DNA of 63,527 bases, taken from the NCBI GenBank assembly GCA_947166445.1, contig CAMVED010000005.1:1-63527 (forward strand). The letters are read 5' to 3'. This stretch comes from an uncultured Mycoplasmatota bacterium (GTDB lineage: Bacteria; Bacillota_I; Bacilli_A; RF39; UBA660). The stretch's first letter is position 1. The number at the start of each line of letters is the position of its first letter. Below are positions 31,831-37,221 of this stretch, piece after piece. The notes under the pieces were generated by a model. The model ran no database searches. It was not told the DNA's origin and saw nothing but the letters and a program-made list of their open reading frames with translations. Position numbers and translations under genes: made by a program.

Positions 31831-32307
31831 TTAAATAAAGGTAAACTCTGCATATGCTGAAATACCTCCTAAAGCATTGATATCTTCTTGACTTATATTA
31901 AGAACTATTTTATATGTACTATCCTCATTTGAATTAATAGTTGTTTTAAATAAAACACCTTCTTCTTTTACTATACCTTGTTTTACTATAGTATTATTTT
32001 TTAATATAGTGTAATTCATATAATTGTACGGATAAGCTTCATTAGTATTATTTAGTACAAATGATACATCTTGTTTTTTATGAGAAACATTTCTTATTTG
32101 TACACTGTGTTCTTCTTTTAAACCTGAACTTTTATCAATTTTATTATCTAATTCCGCTACTGTAAAACCTGGCATGTTATTAATAATAGCATTTGCCTCA
32201 TTGTAACTTGCTTTAACATTATTTCTTATCATAGAGAAAAATACTACAAAAACTATTACTAGGATAATTCTACATACCCTATACATTATCTCATTTTTCA
32301 TTTCCAA
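31831..32307 (-). CDS. Hypothetical exported protein
   Basis: N-terminal TM/signal, beta-rich remainder. Confidence 0.55.
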   Translation of the reverse strand: MEMKNEIMYRVCRIILVIVFVVFFSMIRNNVKASYNEANAIINNMPGFTVAELDNKIDKSSGLKEEHSVQIRNVSHKKQDVSFVLNNTNEAYPYNYMNYTILKNNTIVKQGIVKEEGVLFKTTINSNEDSTYKIVLNISQEDINALGGISAYAEFTFI

Positions 32308-32378
32308 AACCCCTCTTAAAAATGTGGCATTATTATAACATATTTTTGGGAAAATGTCAATGATCAGGGCATTTTAAA

Positions 32379-32406
32379 CAAAAAAGCAACCAATTAATGA
32401 TTGCTT
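32379..32406 (-). terminator. Intrinsic terminator closing the peptide-rSAM-PqqD-aspS-aspS operon
   Basis: Minus strand AAGCAA...TTGCTT hairpin followed by a T-run, just past the second aspS stop. Confidence 0.6.
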
Positions 32407-32420
32407 CTAATTTTTTATAA

Positions 32421-33734
32421 TTAAAGTTTTAATTTTCTTGATGGCCCTCTATATATAAAGTTTGTATCCATAATATTATCTATTTCTAAAGTTTTCATAA
32501 GTACTCTAGATAGTCCAAGGCCATAACCACCATGTGGTGGACATCCATACTTGAATAGTTCTAAATATGCTTTTAATTCATCTGGATTAATTCCTTTTTC
32601 AAGTACTTGATTTAATAATTTGTCATAGTTATGTTCCCTTAATGCACCAGTTGTTATTTCTAGACCGCGATATAATAAATCATAGCTCTTAGTATTACCA
32701 TTTTCATCTACCTGTTGATAGAATGCTCTTGATTCAAACGGAAATCCTTCTATAAATATAAAATCTGATTTAAAACATTCCAATGCATATTTGCCTAATA
32801 ATAATTCTTCTTTCCTATCAAAATCTGTTTTTCTTTCTCCAACATAATTGTATCTATTCTTTAATATTTGTTTAGCTTCAAAAAAAGTTATTCTTGGTAT
32901 AGTTGCATCTATATTAACCAATTTACTATTAAAATCATTTTTTATCATGTTGCCATATTTACTATTGAGCTTTTCAAAGCCATATTTCAAAAATTCTTCT
33001 TCAAAGTCTTCAATTTTTGAAATATTTTCTATCCATGATATTTCTACATCACACATATTAATTTCTGAAGCATGATAACTTGTATTTGATTTTTCGGCTC
33101 TGAAAGCTGGACCAATTTCAAATACTTTGTCAAATCCTGATGCCATTGCCATTTGTTTATAGAATTGCGGACTTTGTGCTAATGCTGCTTCTTGTCCAAA
33201 AAAATCTATTTTAAATACTTCACTACCGCTTTCTGCAGCTTTGGCAGTTATTTTTGGTGAATGTAATTCTATGAAATCATTTTTTATACAATACTGTCTA
33301 AGAGCATTTTCAAAATATGTTTCGATTTGGAATAATTTATAATTTTTCTCAGATCGCAAATCTAGATTTCTATAATCATGTCTAACACTTCTGCTTATAT
33401 TTTTTTCTTTATAATTTAATGGTAACTCCTCGGCTATTGATGTTACATTTATTTTAGTTGGAATAATTTCCATTCCATTTAGTTTTACATTTGGAGCTTC
33501 ATTTAATACACCTTCAATATTTACTGTACTATCAAGTGATAATGTTTTTACTGTTTCATTTAATTCCTTATTATTATCGTTTTTTTCAATGGTAACTTGT
33601 ACTTTTCCGGTATGATCTCTTAGTATCAAAAATTGAACATATTTCAAATCCTTTATATTATCTACAAAACCTGATACAGTAATTTTTTTATCTTTATATT
33701 TATTTAATTCATTCATGTATATTTTATTATTCAT
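32421..33734 (-). CDS. Divergent short-type (archaeal/AspRS2-like) aspartyl-tRNA synthetase paralog
   Basis: OB-fold LRDHTGKVQ, AQSPQFYKQ, FRAEKSNTSYH, GALREH, YGCPPHGGYGLGLSR. Confidence 0.85.
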   Translation of the reverse strand: MNNKIYMNELNKYKDKKITVSGFVDNIKDLKYVQFLILRDHTGKVQVTIEKNDNNKELNETVKTLSLDSTVNIEGVLNEAPNVKLNGMEIIPTKINVTSIAEELPLNYKEKNISRSVRHDYRNLDLRSEKNYKLFQIETYFENALRQYCIKNDFIELHSPKITAKAAESGSEVFKIDFFGQEAALAQSPQFYKQMAMASGFDKVFEIGPAFRAEKSNTSYHASEINMCDVEISWIENISKIEDFEEEFLKYGFEKLNSKYGNMIKNDFNSKLVNIDATIPRITFFEAKQILKNRYNYVGERKTDFDRKEELLLGKYALECFKSDFIFIEGFPFESRAFYQQVDENGNTKSYDLLYRGLEITTGALREHNYDKLLNQVLEKGINPDELKAYLELFKYGCPPHGGYGLGLSRVLMKTLEIDNIMDTNFIYRGPSRKLKL

Positions 33735-33757
33735 TTTACTTTCCCCCTAATAATTTA

Positions 33758-35074
33758 CTATGGTTCTATTCTGTTTGGACCTCTGAATAGTAGCATTGTT
33801 TCTTTTAAGCTCGGAAGACCTAGTAGTAACATGGTTAATCTATCAACTCCTATTGCAAATCCTCCATGTGGTGGACATCCATATTTAAAGAAGTCTAAAT
33901 AGAAATCTACGTCTTTTCCCAAACCTTTTTCTTTTGCTTGAGCTTTTAATATTTCATATCTATGTTCTCTTTGTGCTCCAGTTGTTATTTCAGTACCTCT
34001 CCAGATTAGGTCATATCCATTTGGAATACCATTTTCATCTCTCATATGATAGAATGCTCTTTTTTTGCTGCTAAAACCTGTTATAAATATAAATTCATGG
34101 CCATATTCTTCCATGGCATATTTAGATATTAATGATTCTGTTTCATTGTTCATATCTCCTACATCTTCTTCAGGAATCTTATATCCATATCTTTTATTTA
34201 GTTCTTGGTATACATCATTTAAATCCATTCTAGGAAAAGGTTTTGAAGGTACTATTACTTCTTTACCAAATATTTCTTTTATAGTTTCTCCATATTTTTC
34301 TTTTACCTTTGTAAGACCTGCAATTAAAAGATCTTCTTCTACATTCATTACGTCTTCAACACTATCAACATAAGCAAATTCTAGGTCAAATGATGTATAT
34401 TCAGTAGCATGGCGATAAGTATTAGATTTTTCTGCTCTAAATACTGGTCCTACTTCAAACACTTTATCAAGTCCACTTGCTAATACCATTTGTTTATAAA
34501 ATTGTGGTGATTGAGCTAAATAAGCACTTCTTTCAAAATACTTAACTTCAAAAACTTCGCTACCTGATTCTGAAGCAGCTGCTATTAGTTTCGGACTATG
34601 TATTTCACAAAAATTATTTTTATATAAATAATCTCTCATTCCTTCAGTCATACAGGATTCAATTTGTCTAATAAGCATATTCCTTTCATTTCTAATATCT
34701 AAGAAACGGTAATCAAGTCTTGTATCAATGTTAACCCCATCTAAATTATTATAGTCATATGGAAGTTCTTCTGCTTGTGATAAAACTTTTACTTCTTCTG
34801 GAATAATTTCTATTCCTCCAAGTTTTACTGCTTCGTTTTTTGAAACAGTACCATTTACTTCTACAACTGAATCTTTAGTTACTTTTTGGAACAATTCAAT
34901 CATTTCAGCATTTTTTTCTTCACTTTTTTCTAGTGTTAATTGAACTTTTCCTGTTGAGTCTCTTAGCACTACAAACATTACCCATTTTTTATCTCTTACT
35001 GTGTCTACAAAACCACTCATTACTACTTCTTTTCCAAGATGCTTTTCTAATTCATTTACAAATACTTTCTTCAT
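33758..35074 (-). CDS. aspS: Short-type (archaeal/AspRS2-like) aspartate--tRNA ligase
   Basis: LRDSTGKVQ, AQSPQFYKQ, FRAEKSNTYRH, GAQREH, YGCPPHGGFAIGVDR: all canonical. Confidence 0.93.
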   Translation of the reverse strand: MKKVFVNELEKHLGKEVVMSGFVDTVRDKKWVMFVVLRDSTGKVQLTLEKSEEKNAEMIELFQKVTKDSVVEVNGTVSKNEAVKLGGIEIIPEEVKVLSQAEELPYDYNNLDGVNIDTRLDYRFLDIRNERNMLIRQIESCMTEGMRDYLYKNNFCEIHSPKLIAAASESGSEVFEVKYFERSAYLAQSPQFYKQMVLASGLDKVFEVGPVFRAEKSNTYRHATEYTSFDLEFAYVDSVEDVMNVEEDLLIAGLTKVKEKYGETIKEIFGKEVIVPSKPFPRMDLNDVYQELNKRYGYKIPEEDVGDMNNETESLISKYAMEEYGHEFIFITGFSSKKRAFYHMRDENGIPNGYDLIWRGTEITTGAQREHRYEILKAQAKEKGLGKDVDFYLDFFKYGCPPHGGFAIGVDRLTMLLLGLPSLKETMLLFRGPNRIEP

Positions 35075-35145
35075 ATTATTAACTCCTTTTTAATACATGT
35101 TTTTTTTATTTTATATTTTTTTTAAGTTTAAATCAATATTAATAA

Positions 35146-35406
35146 TTAAAATTCTTCAAAGATTCCGCATATTTTCATTTTTTCATAGAACTCTGTAACA
35201 TCTTTTTCAACTATTGATTTTTCAACATTGTACATTTTAGAAACGTCATTAATCAATGCTTCAAGAGTGTCACACTTTTTTGATTCATCAAGTATATTTT
35301 TTCCTATTTCATTAATTGTTATTATCTTTGAGTATGGCGTCATTGTAATATATTCATCATCTGATTCTTTTCTAATCCTTAAAAGTTTTGTTTTATACTT
35401 TTTCAC
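35146..35406 (-). CDS. PqqD family RiPP recognition element (RRE)
   Basis: 86 aa; INEIGKNIL...Y.V....EKDVTEFYEKM..CG winged-helix pattern; GTG start 7 nt after GAGGTG, overlapping the rSAM end. Confidence 0.82.
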   Translation of the reverse strand: MKKYKTKLLRIRKESDDEYITMTPYSKIITINEIGKNILDESKKCDTLEALINDVSKMYNVEKSIVEKDVTEFYEKMKICGIFEEF

Positions 35407-36406
35407 AGCTCATCACCTCATCTAAAATCTCATCATATGAGAAATCACAATTACGAGTTTCCTTGCATCCAGAATGGCAACGCTCAAATAAGTCACATGT
35501 TTTACATTTATCTGGTAACCATTTCATACTTCTGTATTCCATTAGCATTTCATCATTATTCCATACTTCTTCTAAATTATTTTTAAAAATATTACCTAGT
35601 TTTTTGTAAGTATATGAACACGGTTGAATATTACCATCGCAATCAATACTTATATAATTTTGTCCAAATCCACAATTACCAACATACTTTAAGTGTTTTG
35701 GATTTTCTACAATACACAATGGAAAATGTATGGCATATTTAAATGTTGTATCCTTATATTTGCTAGCTAGATAATCTATATCTTTTAACGTATTATTAAT
35801 TTGCTCGACAGATAGTTTTAAACTATCACTTATTTTTTTAGGCAACTCTGGATTTGAAATATATCTATTAAATGCAAATGCTTTTATTTCATACTTATCT
35901 TTTAAATCTTCTACAAATTCTTTAATATCAGTATAATTGTTTGCAGTAACTGTCATGTTTATAGTTAATGGTATTTTTAATTTGTTAATTTTTTCAATGG
36001 TATTCCTTATAATTTGATATTGTTTTTCATTAGATCTCGTTAATCTACAATGGCTGGCCATTGATCCATGTATTGATACAGCAATTCCATCTAAAGTATT
36101 AGCAAAATCAGTAAACTCTTTACGCCAAATCATACCGTTTGTTATAAGTGTTGTAAAAAATTCTTTATTTTTAGCATATCTAACAAGTCCAACTATATCA
36201 TTATATACTAATGGCTCTCCTCCAAAAAAGTTTATTCTCAAAACATTATTATCATATAATGTATCTATTATATTTTTTAATCTCTCAGCACTAACATCTT
36301 TTATTTTTTTATTGCTCATGTGCTCTACCCCGCAAAAAATACAATTACCATTGCAGTTTCTAGTCACAATAAAATTGGCAGTAATTGGTGTTTTATAATA
36401 CTTCAT
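35393..36406 (-). CDS. Radical SAM / SPASM-domain peptide maturase
   Basis: CNGNCIFC (CX3CX2C), GGEP, TNG; SPASM CGFG..IDCDGNIQPC..CKTC..FERCHSGC; SD AAGGAGG. Confidence 0.92.
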   Translation of the reverse strand: MKYYKTPITANFIVTRNCNGNCIFCGVEHMSNKKIKDVSAERLKNIIDTLYDNNVLRINFFGGEPLVYNDIVGLVRYAKNKEFFTTLITNGMIWRKEFTDFANTLDGIAVSIHGSMASHCRLTRSNEKQYQIIRNTIEKINKLKIPLTINMTVTANNYTDIKEFVEDLKDKYEIKAFAFNRYISNPELPKKISDSLKLSVEQINNTLKDIDYLASKYKDTTFKYAIHFPLCIVENPKHLKYVGNCGFGQNYISIDCDGNIQPCSYTYKKLGNIFKNNLEEVWNNDEMLMEYRSMKWLPDKCKTCDLFERCHSGCKETRNCDFSYDEILDEVMSCEKV

Positions 36407-36425
36407 AATTACCTCCTTTTTAGTA

Positions 36426-36455
36426 TCAATAGAGTGTTAAAAAACACTCTATTGA
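36426..36455 (-). other. Perfect 13-bp stem-loop between precursor and rSAM (no U-tail)
   Basis: TCAATAGAGTGTT-aaaa-AACACTCTATTGA. Confidence 0.8.
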
Positions 36456-36562
36456 CATGGTGGATCACAAGAAAACGCAACGATTTCTTTTTCGTTTTCT
36501 TTTGAAATTTTGATAGCTTTATTTCCTTGTTTTAGCTCAGCTGTTGGCTTTTCCCATTTCAT
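36449..36562 (-). CDS. Putative RiPP precursor peptide, 37 aa (MKWEKPTAELKQGNKAIKISKENEKEIVAFSCDPPCQ)
   Basis: Hand translation; SD AAAGGAG 8 nt before ATG; WxxP leader motif; Cys-containing C-terminal core; directly upstream of rSAM+RRE; absent from the ORF track. Confidence 0.82.
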   Translation of the reverse strand: MKWEKPTAELKQGNKAIKISKENEKEIVAFSCDPPCQ

Positions 36563-36709
36563 TTTCACCACTCCTTTCAAATTTTAGTTTTTTAATGAGA
36601 TCCCTATAAACTCAATTTTTTACAAAGAATAAAAAAAGGCGAAAGCATAATAAAGCCATGATATATAAGCCTTAAAACTCTCTCACCTCTCTTTTAAATA
36701 ATTGTCATT

Positions 36710-36738
36710 AATATACACCTAAACTATTATCCTGTCAA
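36710..36738 (-). promoter_or_regulatory. SigmaA-type promoter for the RiPP/aspS operon
   Basis: TTGACA-17 nt-TATATT on the minus strand. Confidence 0.7.
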
Positions 36739-36774
36739 TAATCACTATTGCTATTTTAAACAAAAAAGAAACTT

Positions 36775-37221
36775 TTATTTAGTTCCTGTTGAGCCAAATC
36801 CTCCAGTTCCTCTTTGAGTATCAGACAATTCTTCTACTTCTAGAAATTCTGCTTTATAAAATGGCATTATTACCATTTGAGCGATTCTTTCTCCATTTGA
36901 TATAGTTTGATCTATATTTGAGTGATTATGTAGTGCTACCATTACTTCTCCTCTGTAATCAGAATCAACTACTCCAACTTTATTAGCAGGAGCAAGTCCT
37001 TTTTTTGTAGCTAATCCACTTCTAGCAAATATCATTCCAGCATAACCTTCAGGTATTTCCATAGATAGTCCTGTTTTTACCAGGAACGTTTCATGTGGTT
37101 TTATAATTATATCTTCATCAAGGATAGCATATAAATCAAAACCTGCAGCACACGCTGAACCATAACTTGGTATTGTTGCTCTTTCATCTAATTTTTTTAT
37201 TCTTACTTGTCCACCTAGCAT
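36775..37221 (-). CDS. dut: dUTP diphosphatase
   Basis: AGFDL, RSGLA, GVVDSDYRGE, ERIAQ, RGTGGFGSTG; start at MLGGQ after GGAGG. Confidence 0.95.
   Translation of the reverse strand: MLGGQVRIKKLDERATIPSYGSACAAGFDLYAILDEDIIIKPHETFLVKTGLSMEIPEGYAGMIFARSGLATKKGLAPANKVGVVDSDYRGEVMVALHNHSNIDQTISNGERIAQMVIMPFYKAEFLEVEELSDTQRGTGGFGSTGTK

Follow-up and report, generated by a model that had tools for sequence, protein, structure and literature searches.

The 63,527-nucleotide (nt) window analysed here, from a contig of an uncultured Mycoplasmatota bacterium, encodes two archaeal-type aspartyl-tRNA synthetases (AspRS) in tandem, of which the downstream one, AspRS2, is the subject of this report. The AspRS2 gene is intact and under strong purifying selection, and together with the gene of its upstream partner, AspRS1, and a small peptide-maturation cassette, it occupies the locus from which the native bacterial aspS has been displaced. 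On phylogenetic grounds, AspRS2 is a foreign homologue, acquired horizontally from a distinct subclade, and not a local duplicate of AspRS1. Its position is the one that the asparaginyl-tRNA synthetase (AsnRS) gene, asnS, takes in related genomes, and our preferred interpretation, held tentatively as a serious possibility that falls short of being probable, is that AspRS2 is a second AspRS in the AsnRS slot, supplying Asp-tRNA(Asn) to GatCAB.

Displacement of aspS and the AsnRS slot

The window is chromosomal, carrying the end of an rRNA operon, a T-box, tRNA-His and dnaI, and belongs to a metagenome-assembled genome (G000; 755 kb, 26% GC) from a small-genome Bacilli lineage; the host organism is detected in gut metagenomes of bovine, goat and sheep. 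A phage or plasmid origin of the region was considered and rejected, given this chromosomal setting and the lack of any megablast match. Bacterial aspS and asnS are present, and archaeal-type AspRS is absent, in the other 16 species of the genus. G007, the closest species, has the gene order NrdD-NrdG-dUTPase-[bacterial aspS, 591 amino acids (aa)]-orf158-…-DnaI, and the five-gene unit of the window, which encodes a precursor peptide, a radical-SAM enzyme, a PqqD-family protein, AspRS1 and AspRS2, fills exactly the aspS slot (window 32308-36775 versus L032, that is, G007:C14 7612-9387). In G002, the same slot is occupied by open reading frames (ORFs) of 759 and 189 aa.

No bacterial aspS or asnS was found in the assembled part of G000, a genome that is 52.7% complete. 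In G007 and G002, asnS adjoins a gene for a 231-aa protein, the G000 orthologue of which (C6:3108-3833) has unrelated neighbours, so asnS is missing from that syntenic site. ORFs of 723 and 258 aa stand at the expected asnS position when G000 C6:1-3833 is compared with L124 and L125. All three genes of GatCAB (gatC, gatA and gatB) are present in G000, at C2:76223-79308.

A survey of 120 high-quality genomes, each from a different genus of the family, points to the indirect pathway of Asn-tRNA formation (discussed in PMC4206432 and PMC1635274), which an earlier note on this DNA had not brought up. AsnRS is present in 90 of these genomes and absent in 30, 59 have an archaeal-type AspRS and 87 a bacterial one, and at least two AspRS genes are found in 22 of the 30 AsnRS-negative genomes versus 19 of the 90 AsnRS-positive ones (Fisher odds ratio 10.3, p = 7e-7). 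Tight same-strand AspRS-AsnRS tandems number 19, including an archaeal AspRS followed by AsnRS in G625, the nearest AspRS1 relative; the order archaeal AspRS then AsnRS, with gaps of 13-59 nt, is seen in six genomes. There are also six AspRS-AspRS tandems, five of them in AsnRS-negative genomes, G000 included. Because AspRS-AsnRS tandems are common in the family, AspRS2, with the same position, strand and short spacer, occupies the AsnRS slot, the difference being that the downstream gene here is a second AspRS and not AsnRS. The AsnRS-negative genomes with two AspRS include G571 and G640 (bacterial tandem), G591 and G588 (archaeal then bacterial) and G339 (two archaeal-type).

A second-AspRS role in the indirect pathway is thus suggested by the conjunction of a displaced aspS, a missing asnS, the presence of GatCAB and the normal location of asnS next to aspS. 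Under this scenario, AspRS2 would have joined the transcription unit between AspRS1, which it directly follows, and the terminator, and would charge tRNA(Asn) with aspartate, either as a non-discriminating or as a tRNA(Asn)-leaning enzyme; GatCAB would then turn Asp-tRNA(Asn) into Asn-tRNA(Asn), with AspRS1 serving tRNA(Asp). We infer these tRNA assignments for the two copies. GatCAB is also required for Gln-tRNA in Bacillota, so that its presence is not diagnostic. Among the neighbours of other members of the AspRS2 subclade, the indirect pathway is supported by GatCAB (L027) and by AsnA-like genes (L022, L026 and L123), and the two enzymes are separately regulated in L027, where the partner AspRS is controlled by a T-box and AspRS2 has a promoter of its own. 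If the indirect-pathway interpretation is correct, the locus would represent a clear natural swap of bacterial aspS and asnS for two imported archaeal-type AspRS genes, making the direct-to-indirect Asn-tRNA switch testable with a defined gene pair.

Precedents for such an arrangement exist. The non-discriminating archaeal-type AspRS2 of Thermus thermophilus and Deinococcus radiodurans is said, from work by Becker in 2000 and Min in 2002, to function with GatCAB. The protein described here resembles these enzymes (PDB 1n9w, 3kfu) in being a short archaeal-type second AspRS in a bacterium that has another AspRS and GatCAB, in the family-wide link between two AspRS genes and the absence of AsnRS, and in its clear match to 1n9w (E = 2e-70). 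Unlike in Thermus and Deinococcus, however, both copies here are of archaeal type and in tandem, the His and Pro of the non-discriminating type are absent, and AspRS2 shows the NIR-to-NIM change, the loss of the terminal R-L-x-P and the GALREH motif, and rides with a radical-SAM cassette. Another parallel is GluRS2 of Helicobacter pylori, a second synthetase dedicated to an amide tRNA (PMC3241645). In the same manner, a diverged second acidic-amino-acid synthetase could serve an amide-accepting tRNA that feeds GatCAB, but, in contrast to GluRS2, the anticodon-domain determinants are the same in both AspRS copies, and dedication is here a proposal. We know of no AspRS that serves tRNA(Asn) only.

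Several observations weigh against this interpretation. With the host genome only 52.7% complete, asnS may lie elsewhere, and the sister lineage L128 has AspRS1 alone. No Asn-specifier T-box was found ahead of AspRS2 orthologues, the only T-box, that of L027, reading GAC. Non-discriminating behaviour is reportedly determined by His in place of Trp26 and Pro in place of Lys85 (T. kodakarensis numbering), as Feng and colleagues described in 2003; AspRS2, AspRS1 and the parent clade all have Asp25 and Lys84 instead, so that the non-discriminating His and Pro are absent and the two copies are not separated. Asp25 and Lys84 are found also in enzymes of AsnRS-less genomes, and the residue rule therefore seems not to hold in this family, where archaeal-type AspRS of genomes that have AsnRS and of genomes that lack it mix at short tree distances. 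The earlier note was right in observing Lys instead of Pro in the anticodon-domain loop of both copies, but this residue is a poor predictor of tRNA discrimination, near-identical Lys-bearing enzymes being found in genomes with and without AsnRS. Other second AspRS in AsnRS-less genomes of the family keep NIRE and R-L-x-P and have no long branch, such that a role in the indirect pathway alone leaves the long stem and the 21-position signature of the AspRS2 subclade (see below) unexplained. Finally, the occurrence of an intact five-gene block, AspRS2 included, with unrelated flanks in the bovine gut is a hint that AspRS2 and the peptide cassette are functionally linked, and the interpretation offers no account of the MccF-like, GNAT and radical-SAM genes near other subclade members.

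The AspRS2 protein and its subclade

By its predicted domains, family score and binding residues, AspRS2 is an archaeal/eukaryal-type class IIb AspRS. It comprises an OB-fold anticodon-binding domain (PF01336, E = 7e-11) and a class II core (PF00152, E = 2.5e-67), among PDB entries it best matches the AspRS of T. kodakarensis (3nel and 1b8a, E = 4e-83), and it passes the NF003483 model at 434.6 bits versus a cut-off of 353; with the older TIGR00458 model, AspRS2 scores below the cut-off (334.2 versus 368.4) and AspRS1 above it (383.8). The first-shell residues for aspartate and ATP, namely, QSPQ..K, the motif-2 R/E/H, D229/E231, E359, the GAxR Arg and the motif-3 Arg, are invariant in the subclade alignment, their roles being taken from the PvAspRS complexes (PMC12262901). 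The possibility that AspRS2 is an AsnRS in disguise was rejected, given that QSPQ..K and D229 are retained and that asnS models score far under their cut-offs.

The two copies are only 46% identical and fall in different clades. AspRS1 belongs to another clade of the family, with nearest relatives 72% identical, whereas AspRS2 is a member of a subclade of 16 sequence clusters (67-95% identity) that is set off by a long stem (0.46-0.62 substitutions per site) and placed beside or within a large archaeal-type AspRS clade of uncultured Bacilli, Mollicutes and Izemoplasmatales. A search of 185,579 species genomes revealed no carrier of a subclade member besides the host genome. A recent tandem duplication is thus rejected, and with it the view of AspRS2 as a retuned paralogue in the sense of a duplicate of copy 1. 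By contrast, the expectation that the gene is intact rather than decayed was borne out: compared to the closest metagenomic orthologue (L116, 82.6% aa identity), dN/dS of AspRS2 is 0.095, the signature is conserved across the subclade, and the family model is passed. For AspRS1 and its L116 counterpart (92.6% aa identity), dN/dS is 0.058, and dN of AspRS2 is about 2.4-fold that of AspRS1. Thus, the phylogeny and dN/dS comparison proposed in the earlier note yielded separate clades, without duplication, and purifying selection on both copies. An AspRS2 variant (95% identical, 99% positives) is present on 11 contigs; this intact variant, the dN/dS value and the conserved motifs led us to reject a pseudogene or decay. 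A 2-nt deletion in contig L118 (~420), otherwise identical to L116 and L117, frameshifts AspRS1 and leaves AspRS2 intact; it is either a true strain variant or an assembly error.

The earlier note had described substitutions clustered in catalytic motifs, and all the strings that it quoted for copies 1 and 2 are present (NTYRH/NTSYH, EYTSFD/EINMCD, GAQREH/GALREH, GVDR/GLSR and RGPNRIEP/RGPSRKLKL), as are the features that it listed as retained (QSPQFYK, the motif-2 Arg, the GAxR Arg, the OB fold and VKL). The differences are real, but their distribution is only partly the one proposed: TSYH (Arg to Tyr) and EINM are common to the whole parent clade (~100 sampled enzymes), the first-shell residues are kept, and the positions specific to the subclade concentrate C-terminally. 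A parent-type enzyme is the sole AspRS in G020, G023 and G030, so that the prospect raised in the note, that such substitutions are common in ordinary single-copy enzymes, holds for TSYH and EINM; it does not extend to GALREH, GLSR and the RKLK[LM] end, which are invariant in the 16-member subclade and essentially absent outside it.

These changes are among 21 positions that define the subclade: K31, A101, a deletion at 114, H119, L157, S171, K215, C228, D306, L318, A337, Q340, L365, G405, L408, S409, K414, M422, D423, T424 and an inserted K434. Eight of the 21 lie within the C-terminal 33 residues (hypergeometric P = 4.5e-5), and, in addition, the terminal Pro is lost. AspRS2 lacks both hallmarks of the conserved C-terminal hairpin, the Arg of NIR(E/D) and the terminal R-L-x-P; instead, 16 of 16 subclade members have NIMD and …RKLK[LM], with M422 replacing an Arg that is present in 104 of 104 parent-clade sequences (and is Lys in AspRS1-like ones). 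The counterpart of this site in human AsnRS, Arg534, has been called strictly conserved, and the C-terminal 15 residues of that enzyme contribute to the dimer interface, are close to the acceptor stem and make bonds to motifs 2 and 3 (PMC12513289). At the Gln-to-Leu site of GALREH, bacterial AspRS has Ile (GGSIRIH), so that this change entails no catalytic loss. A long-branched third AspRS copy in G076 independently shows GSLREH. In G339, the only other genome with two archaeal-type copies, both copies are long-branched, and convergent C-terminal changes, looked for there, were not seen.

The signature may be read in three ways. It may reflect specialisation toward tRNA(Asn), the motif-2 loop and the C-terminal hairpin being near the acceptor end (PMC12262901, PMC12513289); it may keep the enzyme from forming mixed dimers with an archaeal-type partner expressed alongside it; or it may weaken the binding of adenylate-mimic inhibitors. 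Within the scenario of Asp-tRNA(Asn) supply, we infer that the C-terminal and motif-2-loop changes adapt AspRS2 to the tRNA(Asn) role or else block its pairing with co-expressed AspRS1. The replacement of the hairpin Arg and the loss of R-L-x-P under strong selection amount to a natural experiment on the role of this hairpin, be it in dimer pairing, acceptor-stem contact or active-site shaping. The logic of the indirect pathway being already known, the unusual aspects here are this conserved C-terminal remodelling and the travel of AspRS2 with a radical-SAM peptide cassette.

The five-gene unit and its peptide cassette

The genes form a single minus-strand unit (36738-32382), from promoter to terminator, with the following features, in order of transcription:

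36710..36738, minus strand: promoter-like site TTGACA-17-TATATT, near-consensus, heading the five-gene unit (from the sequence)
36449..36562, minus strand: precursor peptide ORF, 37 codons, MKWEKPTAELKQGNKAIKISKENEKEIVAFSCDPPCQ, end …FSCDPPCQ (read from the sequence; conserved in L128 and L129)
35393..36406, minus strand: radical-SAM/SPASM peptide maturase, 337 aa (PF04055 and PF13186; homologues P0121-P0150)
35146..35406, minus strand: PqqD-family peptide-recognition protein (RRE), 86 aa (PF05402, E = 8e-8; 84% identity in L128)
33758..35074, minus strand: AspRS1, 438 aa, canonical archaeal-type (NTYRH, EYTSFD, GAQREH, GVDR, RIEP; ORF, Pfam, NCBIfam)
33735..33757, minus strand: spacer between AspRS1 and AspRS2, 23 nt, with a GGGGG ribosome-binding site, TAAATTATTAGGGGGAAAGTAAA (22-nt counterpart in metagenome locus L116)
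32421..33734, minus strand: AspRS2, 437 aa, archaeal-type class IIb, of a rare conserved subclade (ORF, PF01336 and PF00152, NF003483)
32382..32408, minus strand: terminator-like hairpin and T-run, 13 nt past the AspRS2 stop codon (from the sequence)

The cassette (35146-36738, minus strand) combines a 37-aa precursor ending in FSCDPPC[QL] with the radical-SAM/SPASM and PqqD proteins, and is conserved in L128 (9841-11261; radical-SAM enzyme 81% identical; precursor end …FSCDPPCL) and in L129 (1652-3070; 69%; …FSCDPPCQ). Its radical-SAM enzyme is absent from 400 class-level and 400 phylum-level sampled genomes; of two JGI scans for radical-SAM context, the first gave none and the second one informative short contig (L129). 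No DxPC precursors were found near other members of the AspRS2 subclade.

At the same locus, the sister lineage L128 carries the precursor, radical-SAM, PqqD and AspRS1 genes (AspRS1 92.5% identical) and lacks AspRS2, the common terminator-promoter region following directly after AspRS1; its flanks and cassette are both ~85% identical to the window at the nt level. In the more distant L129, a terminator after PqqD closes the operon. Contigs from the bovine gut align to 32427-36723 at ~93.5% identity, and all indels fall between genes; in these contigs, the block, including AspRS2, is intact, and the flanks have no match to the window even at 80% identity. The AspRS1 genes of the window, L128 and L116 are equidistant (87-88% nt identity), so that gain and loss of AspRS2 are not orderable.

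The two themes of the locus, peptide and synthetases, would come together if the mobile block were a toxin-plus-bypass module, a long shot in our estimation. The radical-SAM-modified peptide, with its invariant Asp in the DxPC core, would poison bacterial-type class IIb synthetases, that is, AspRS and, possibly, AsnRS, and the two AspRS carried by the block would provide the bypass, with AspRS1 covering tRNA(Asp) and AspRS2 covering tRNA(Asn) via GatCAB. If true, such a scheme would account for the loss of native aspS and asnS from the host, and AspRS2 would confer resistance and, at the same time, be the first AspRS with a specialisation for tRNA(Asn).

Downstream of the terminator-like hairpin comes a consensus promoter (32360-32332) for the next gene, orf158 (31831-32360, minus strand). 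Preceded by this perfect TTGACA-17-TGnTATAAT site, orf158 lies between the AspRS unit and the dnaB/dnaI-like genes and encodes a 158-aa, predicted membrane-anchored protein without a family match, which is conserved in G007 (77%), G002 (56%) and L128 (72%).

Genomic contexts of the AspRS2 subclade

We read 12 independent contexts of subclade members and compared them with 80 control loci. Eight of the 12 have a second gene of the AspRS family next to AspRS2, compared with 3 of the 80 controls. The adjacent partners are AspRS1-like (window, L116, L026 and L027), bacterial AspRS (L024) or core-only AsnA-like (L022, L026 and L123), and a second AspRS is present in five contexts (window, L024, L026, L027 and L116). 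In L027, the T-box of the partner AspRS has the specifier GAC (Asp), and the separate promoter of AspRS2 reads TTGACA-17-TATAAT. Other recurrent neighbours are S51 peptidases (four contexts), an isoaspartyl dipeptidase passing TIGR01975 (two), GNAT (three, with two PqqD fusions in L031) and a DSHSH amidohydrolase-like protein (three), joined by radical-SAM enzymes, GatCAB (L027), relA and an MccF-like S66 peptidase that matches PDB 4e94 with E = 2e-72, versus 1.7e-8 for LdcA.

These contexts bear on whether AspRS2 is simply a redundant foreign copy, the ordinary AspRS of a poorly sampled donor kept for dosage or linkage, with a signature produced by lineage drift or by dimer-interface insulation against mixed dimers with co-expressed AspRS1. 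In L028 and L123, AspRS2 is the sole AspRS seen and lies near relA, where aspS is usually located; the divergence of housekeeping genes in such contexts is about that of AspRS2 (in L027, GatA 69% versus AspRS2 71%), the remodelled residues map to a hairpin that is part of the dimer interface in human AsnRS (PMC12513289), and L128 lives without AspRS2. Nevertheless, we regard redundancy as improbable in the face of the excess of adjacent AspRS-family genes over the controls, the strong selection in two or three lineages in which AspRS1 is likewise retained, the occurrence of two archaeal-type copies in only 2 of 121 family genomes, and the strong association of a second AspRS with AsnRS absence.

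The main alternative is that AspRS2 is an inhibitor-insensitive AspRS, which would provide either immunity to the cassette product or general resistance to aspartyl-adenylate mimics, of the microcin-C or nucleoside-sulfamate type, in the ruminant gut. Second-shell changes in the Asp/ATP pocket and the remodelled C-terminal hairpin would reduce inhibitor binding, with catalysis kept. Self-resistance synthetase copies are familiar from antibiotic clusters, such as those for mupirocin (IleRS), albomycin (SerRS2) and borrelidin (ThrRS). As in such clusters, and in microcin C immunity, which is conferred by MccE and MccF (PMC8597713), an extra enzyme of the target class stands beside biosynthetic-looking genes, and the MccF-like S66 peptidase and the Acetyltransf_3 GNAT near some orthologues resemble the microcin C immunity enzymes. 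The distribution is patchy and accessory, the host being the only carrier among the species genomes searched; the long stem is followed by purifying selection; AspRS2 lies next to resident AspRS genes of three different types and, where the resident gene is T-box controlled (L027), has its own consensus promoter. Asp-specific S51 peptidases are close to its orthologues, and radical-SAM or PqqD genes are near it in several contexts. In the window, AspRS2 shares a transcription unit with the cassette (promoter 36738 to terminator 32382), and the intact five-gene block recurs with different flanks. Subclade changes also affect the flipping loop (S171), the motif-2 loop (K215) and sites beside Asp-binding residues (C228, L365), and both loops have been tied to reaction-hijacking susceptibility in Plasmodium AspRS (PMC12262901).

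On the other side, cassette and copy are not consistently together: L128 has the precursor, radical-SAM, PqqD and AspRS1 genes without AspRS2, the L129 operon terminates after PqqD, and the DxPC precursor is at no other subclade locus. An MccB-type adenylyltransferase is absent, a literature search gave no radical-SAM peptide that targets AspRS, and the Asp-specific peptidases and AsnA-like genes equally fit aspartate/asparagine supply. Moreover, unlike in self-resistance systems, no sensitive housekeeping aspS is retained in the assembled genome. On balance, we consider resistance unlikely, although, if it is true, the subclade would represent the first natural inhibitor-insensitive AspRS and would mark AspRS-targeting natural products in ruminant gut bacteria.

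It appears highly improbable that AspRS2 is dedicated to providing Asp-tRNA, or a modified aspartyl-tRNA, for the tRNA-dependent tailoring of peptides or cell-wall precursors by neighbouring enzymes. The two PqqD-GNAT fusions directly upstream of the L031 orthologue, the GNAT and amidohydrolase-like genes downstream in L022 and L026, and the cell-wall genes (Asp racemase, VanY, dlt and Alr) near AspRS2 in L022 and L024 are compatible with such a function, but no partner enzyme is common to all contexts and none is present in the window, the GNATs match acetyltransferase families and not Fem or L/F transferases, and a housekeeping AspRS would suffice for Asp-tRNA.

Three of these neighbourhoods deserve description in their own right. 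In L031 (689-4466), the adjacent PqqD-GNAT fusions (269 and 226 aa), together with a DSHSH amidohydrolase-like protein, directly precede the AspRS2 orthologue and look like an undescribed peptide-tailoring set. In L024 (3544-11314), three radical-SAM genes, a GT28 glycosyltransferase and the MccF-like S66 peptidase precede bacterial AspRS and the AspRS2 orthologue, downstream of which are an amidase, alr and the dlt operon. L022 (8004-14534) and L026 (4196-11244) have in common an S51 peptidase, a core-only AsnA-like synthetase, an isoaspartyl dipeptidase, a 212-236-aa protein, a DSHSH amidohydrolase-like protein and GNAT, a set suggestive of a small-molecule pathway or of an island that supplies aspartate/asparagine.

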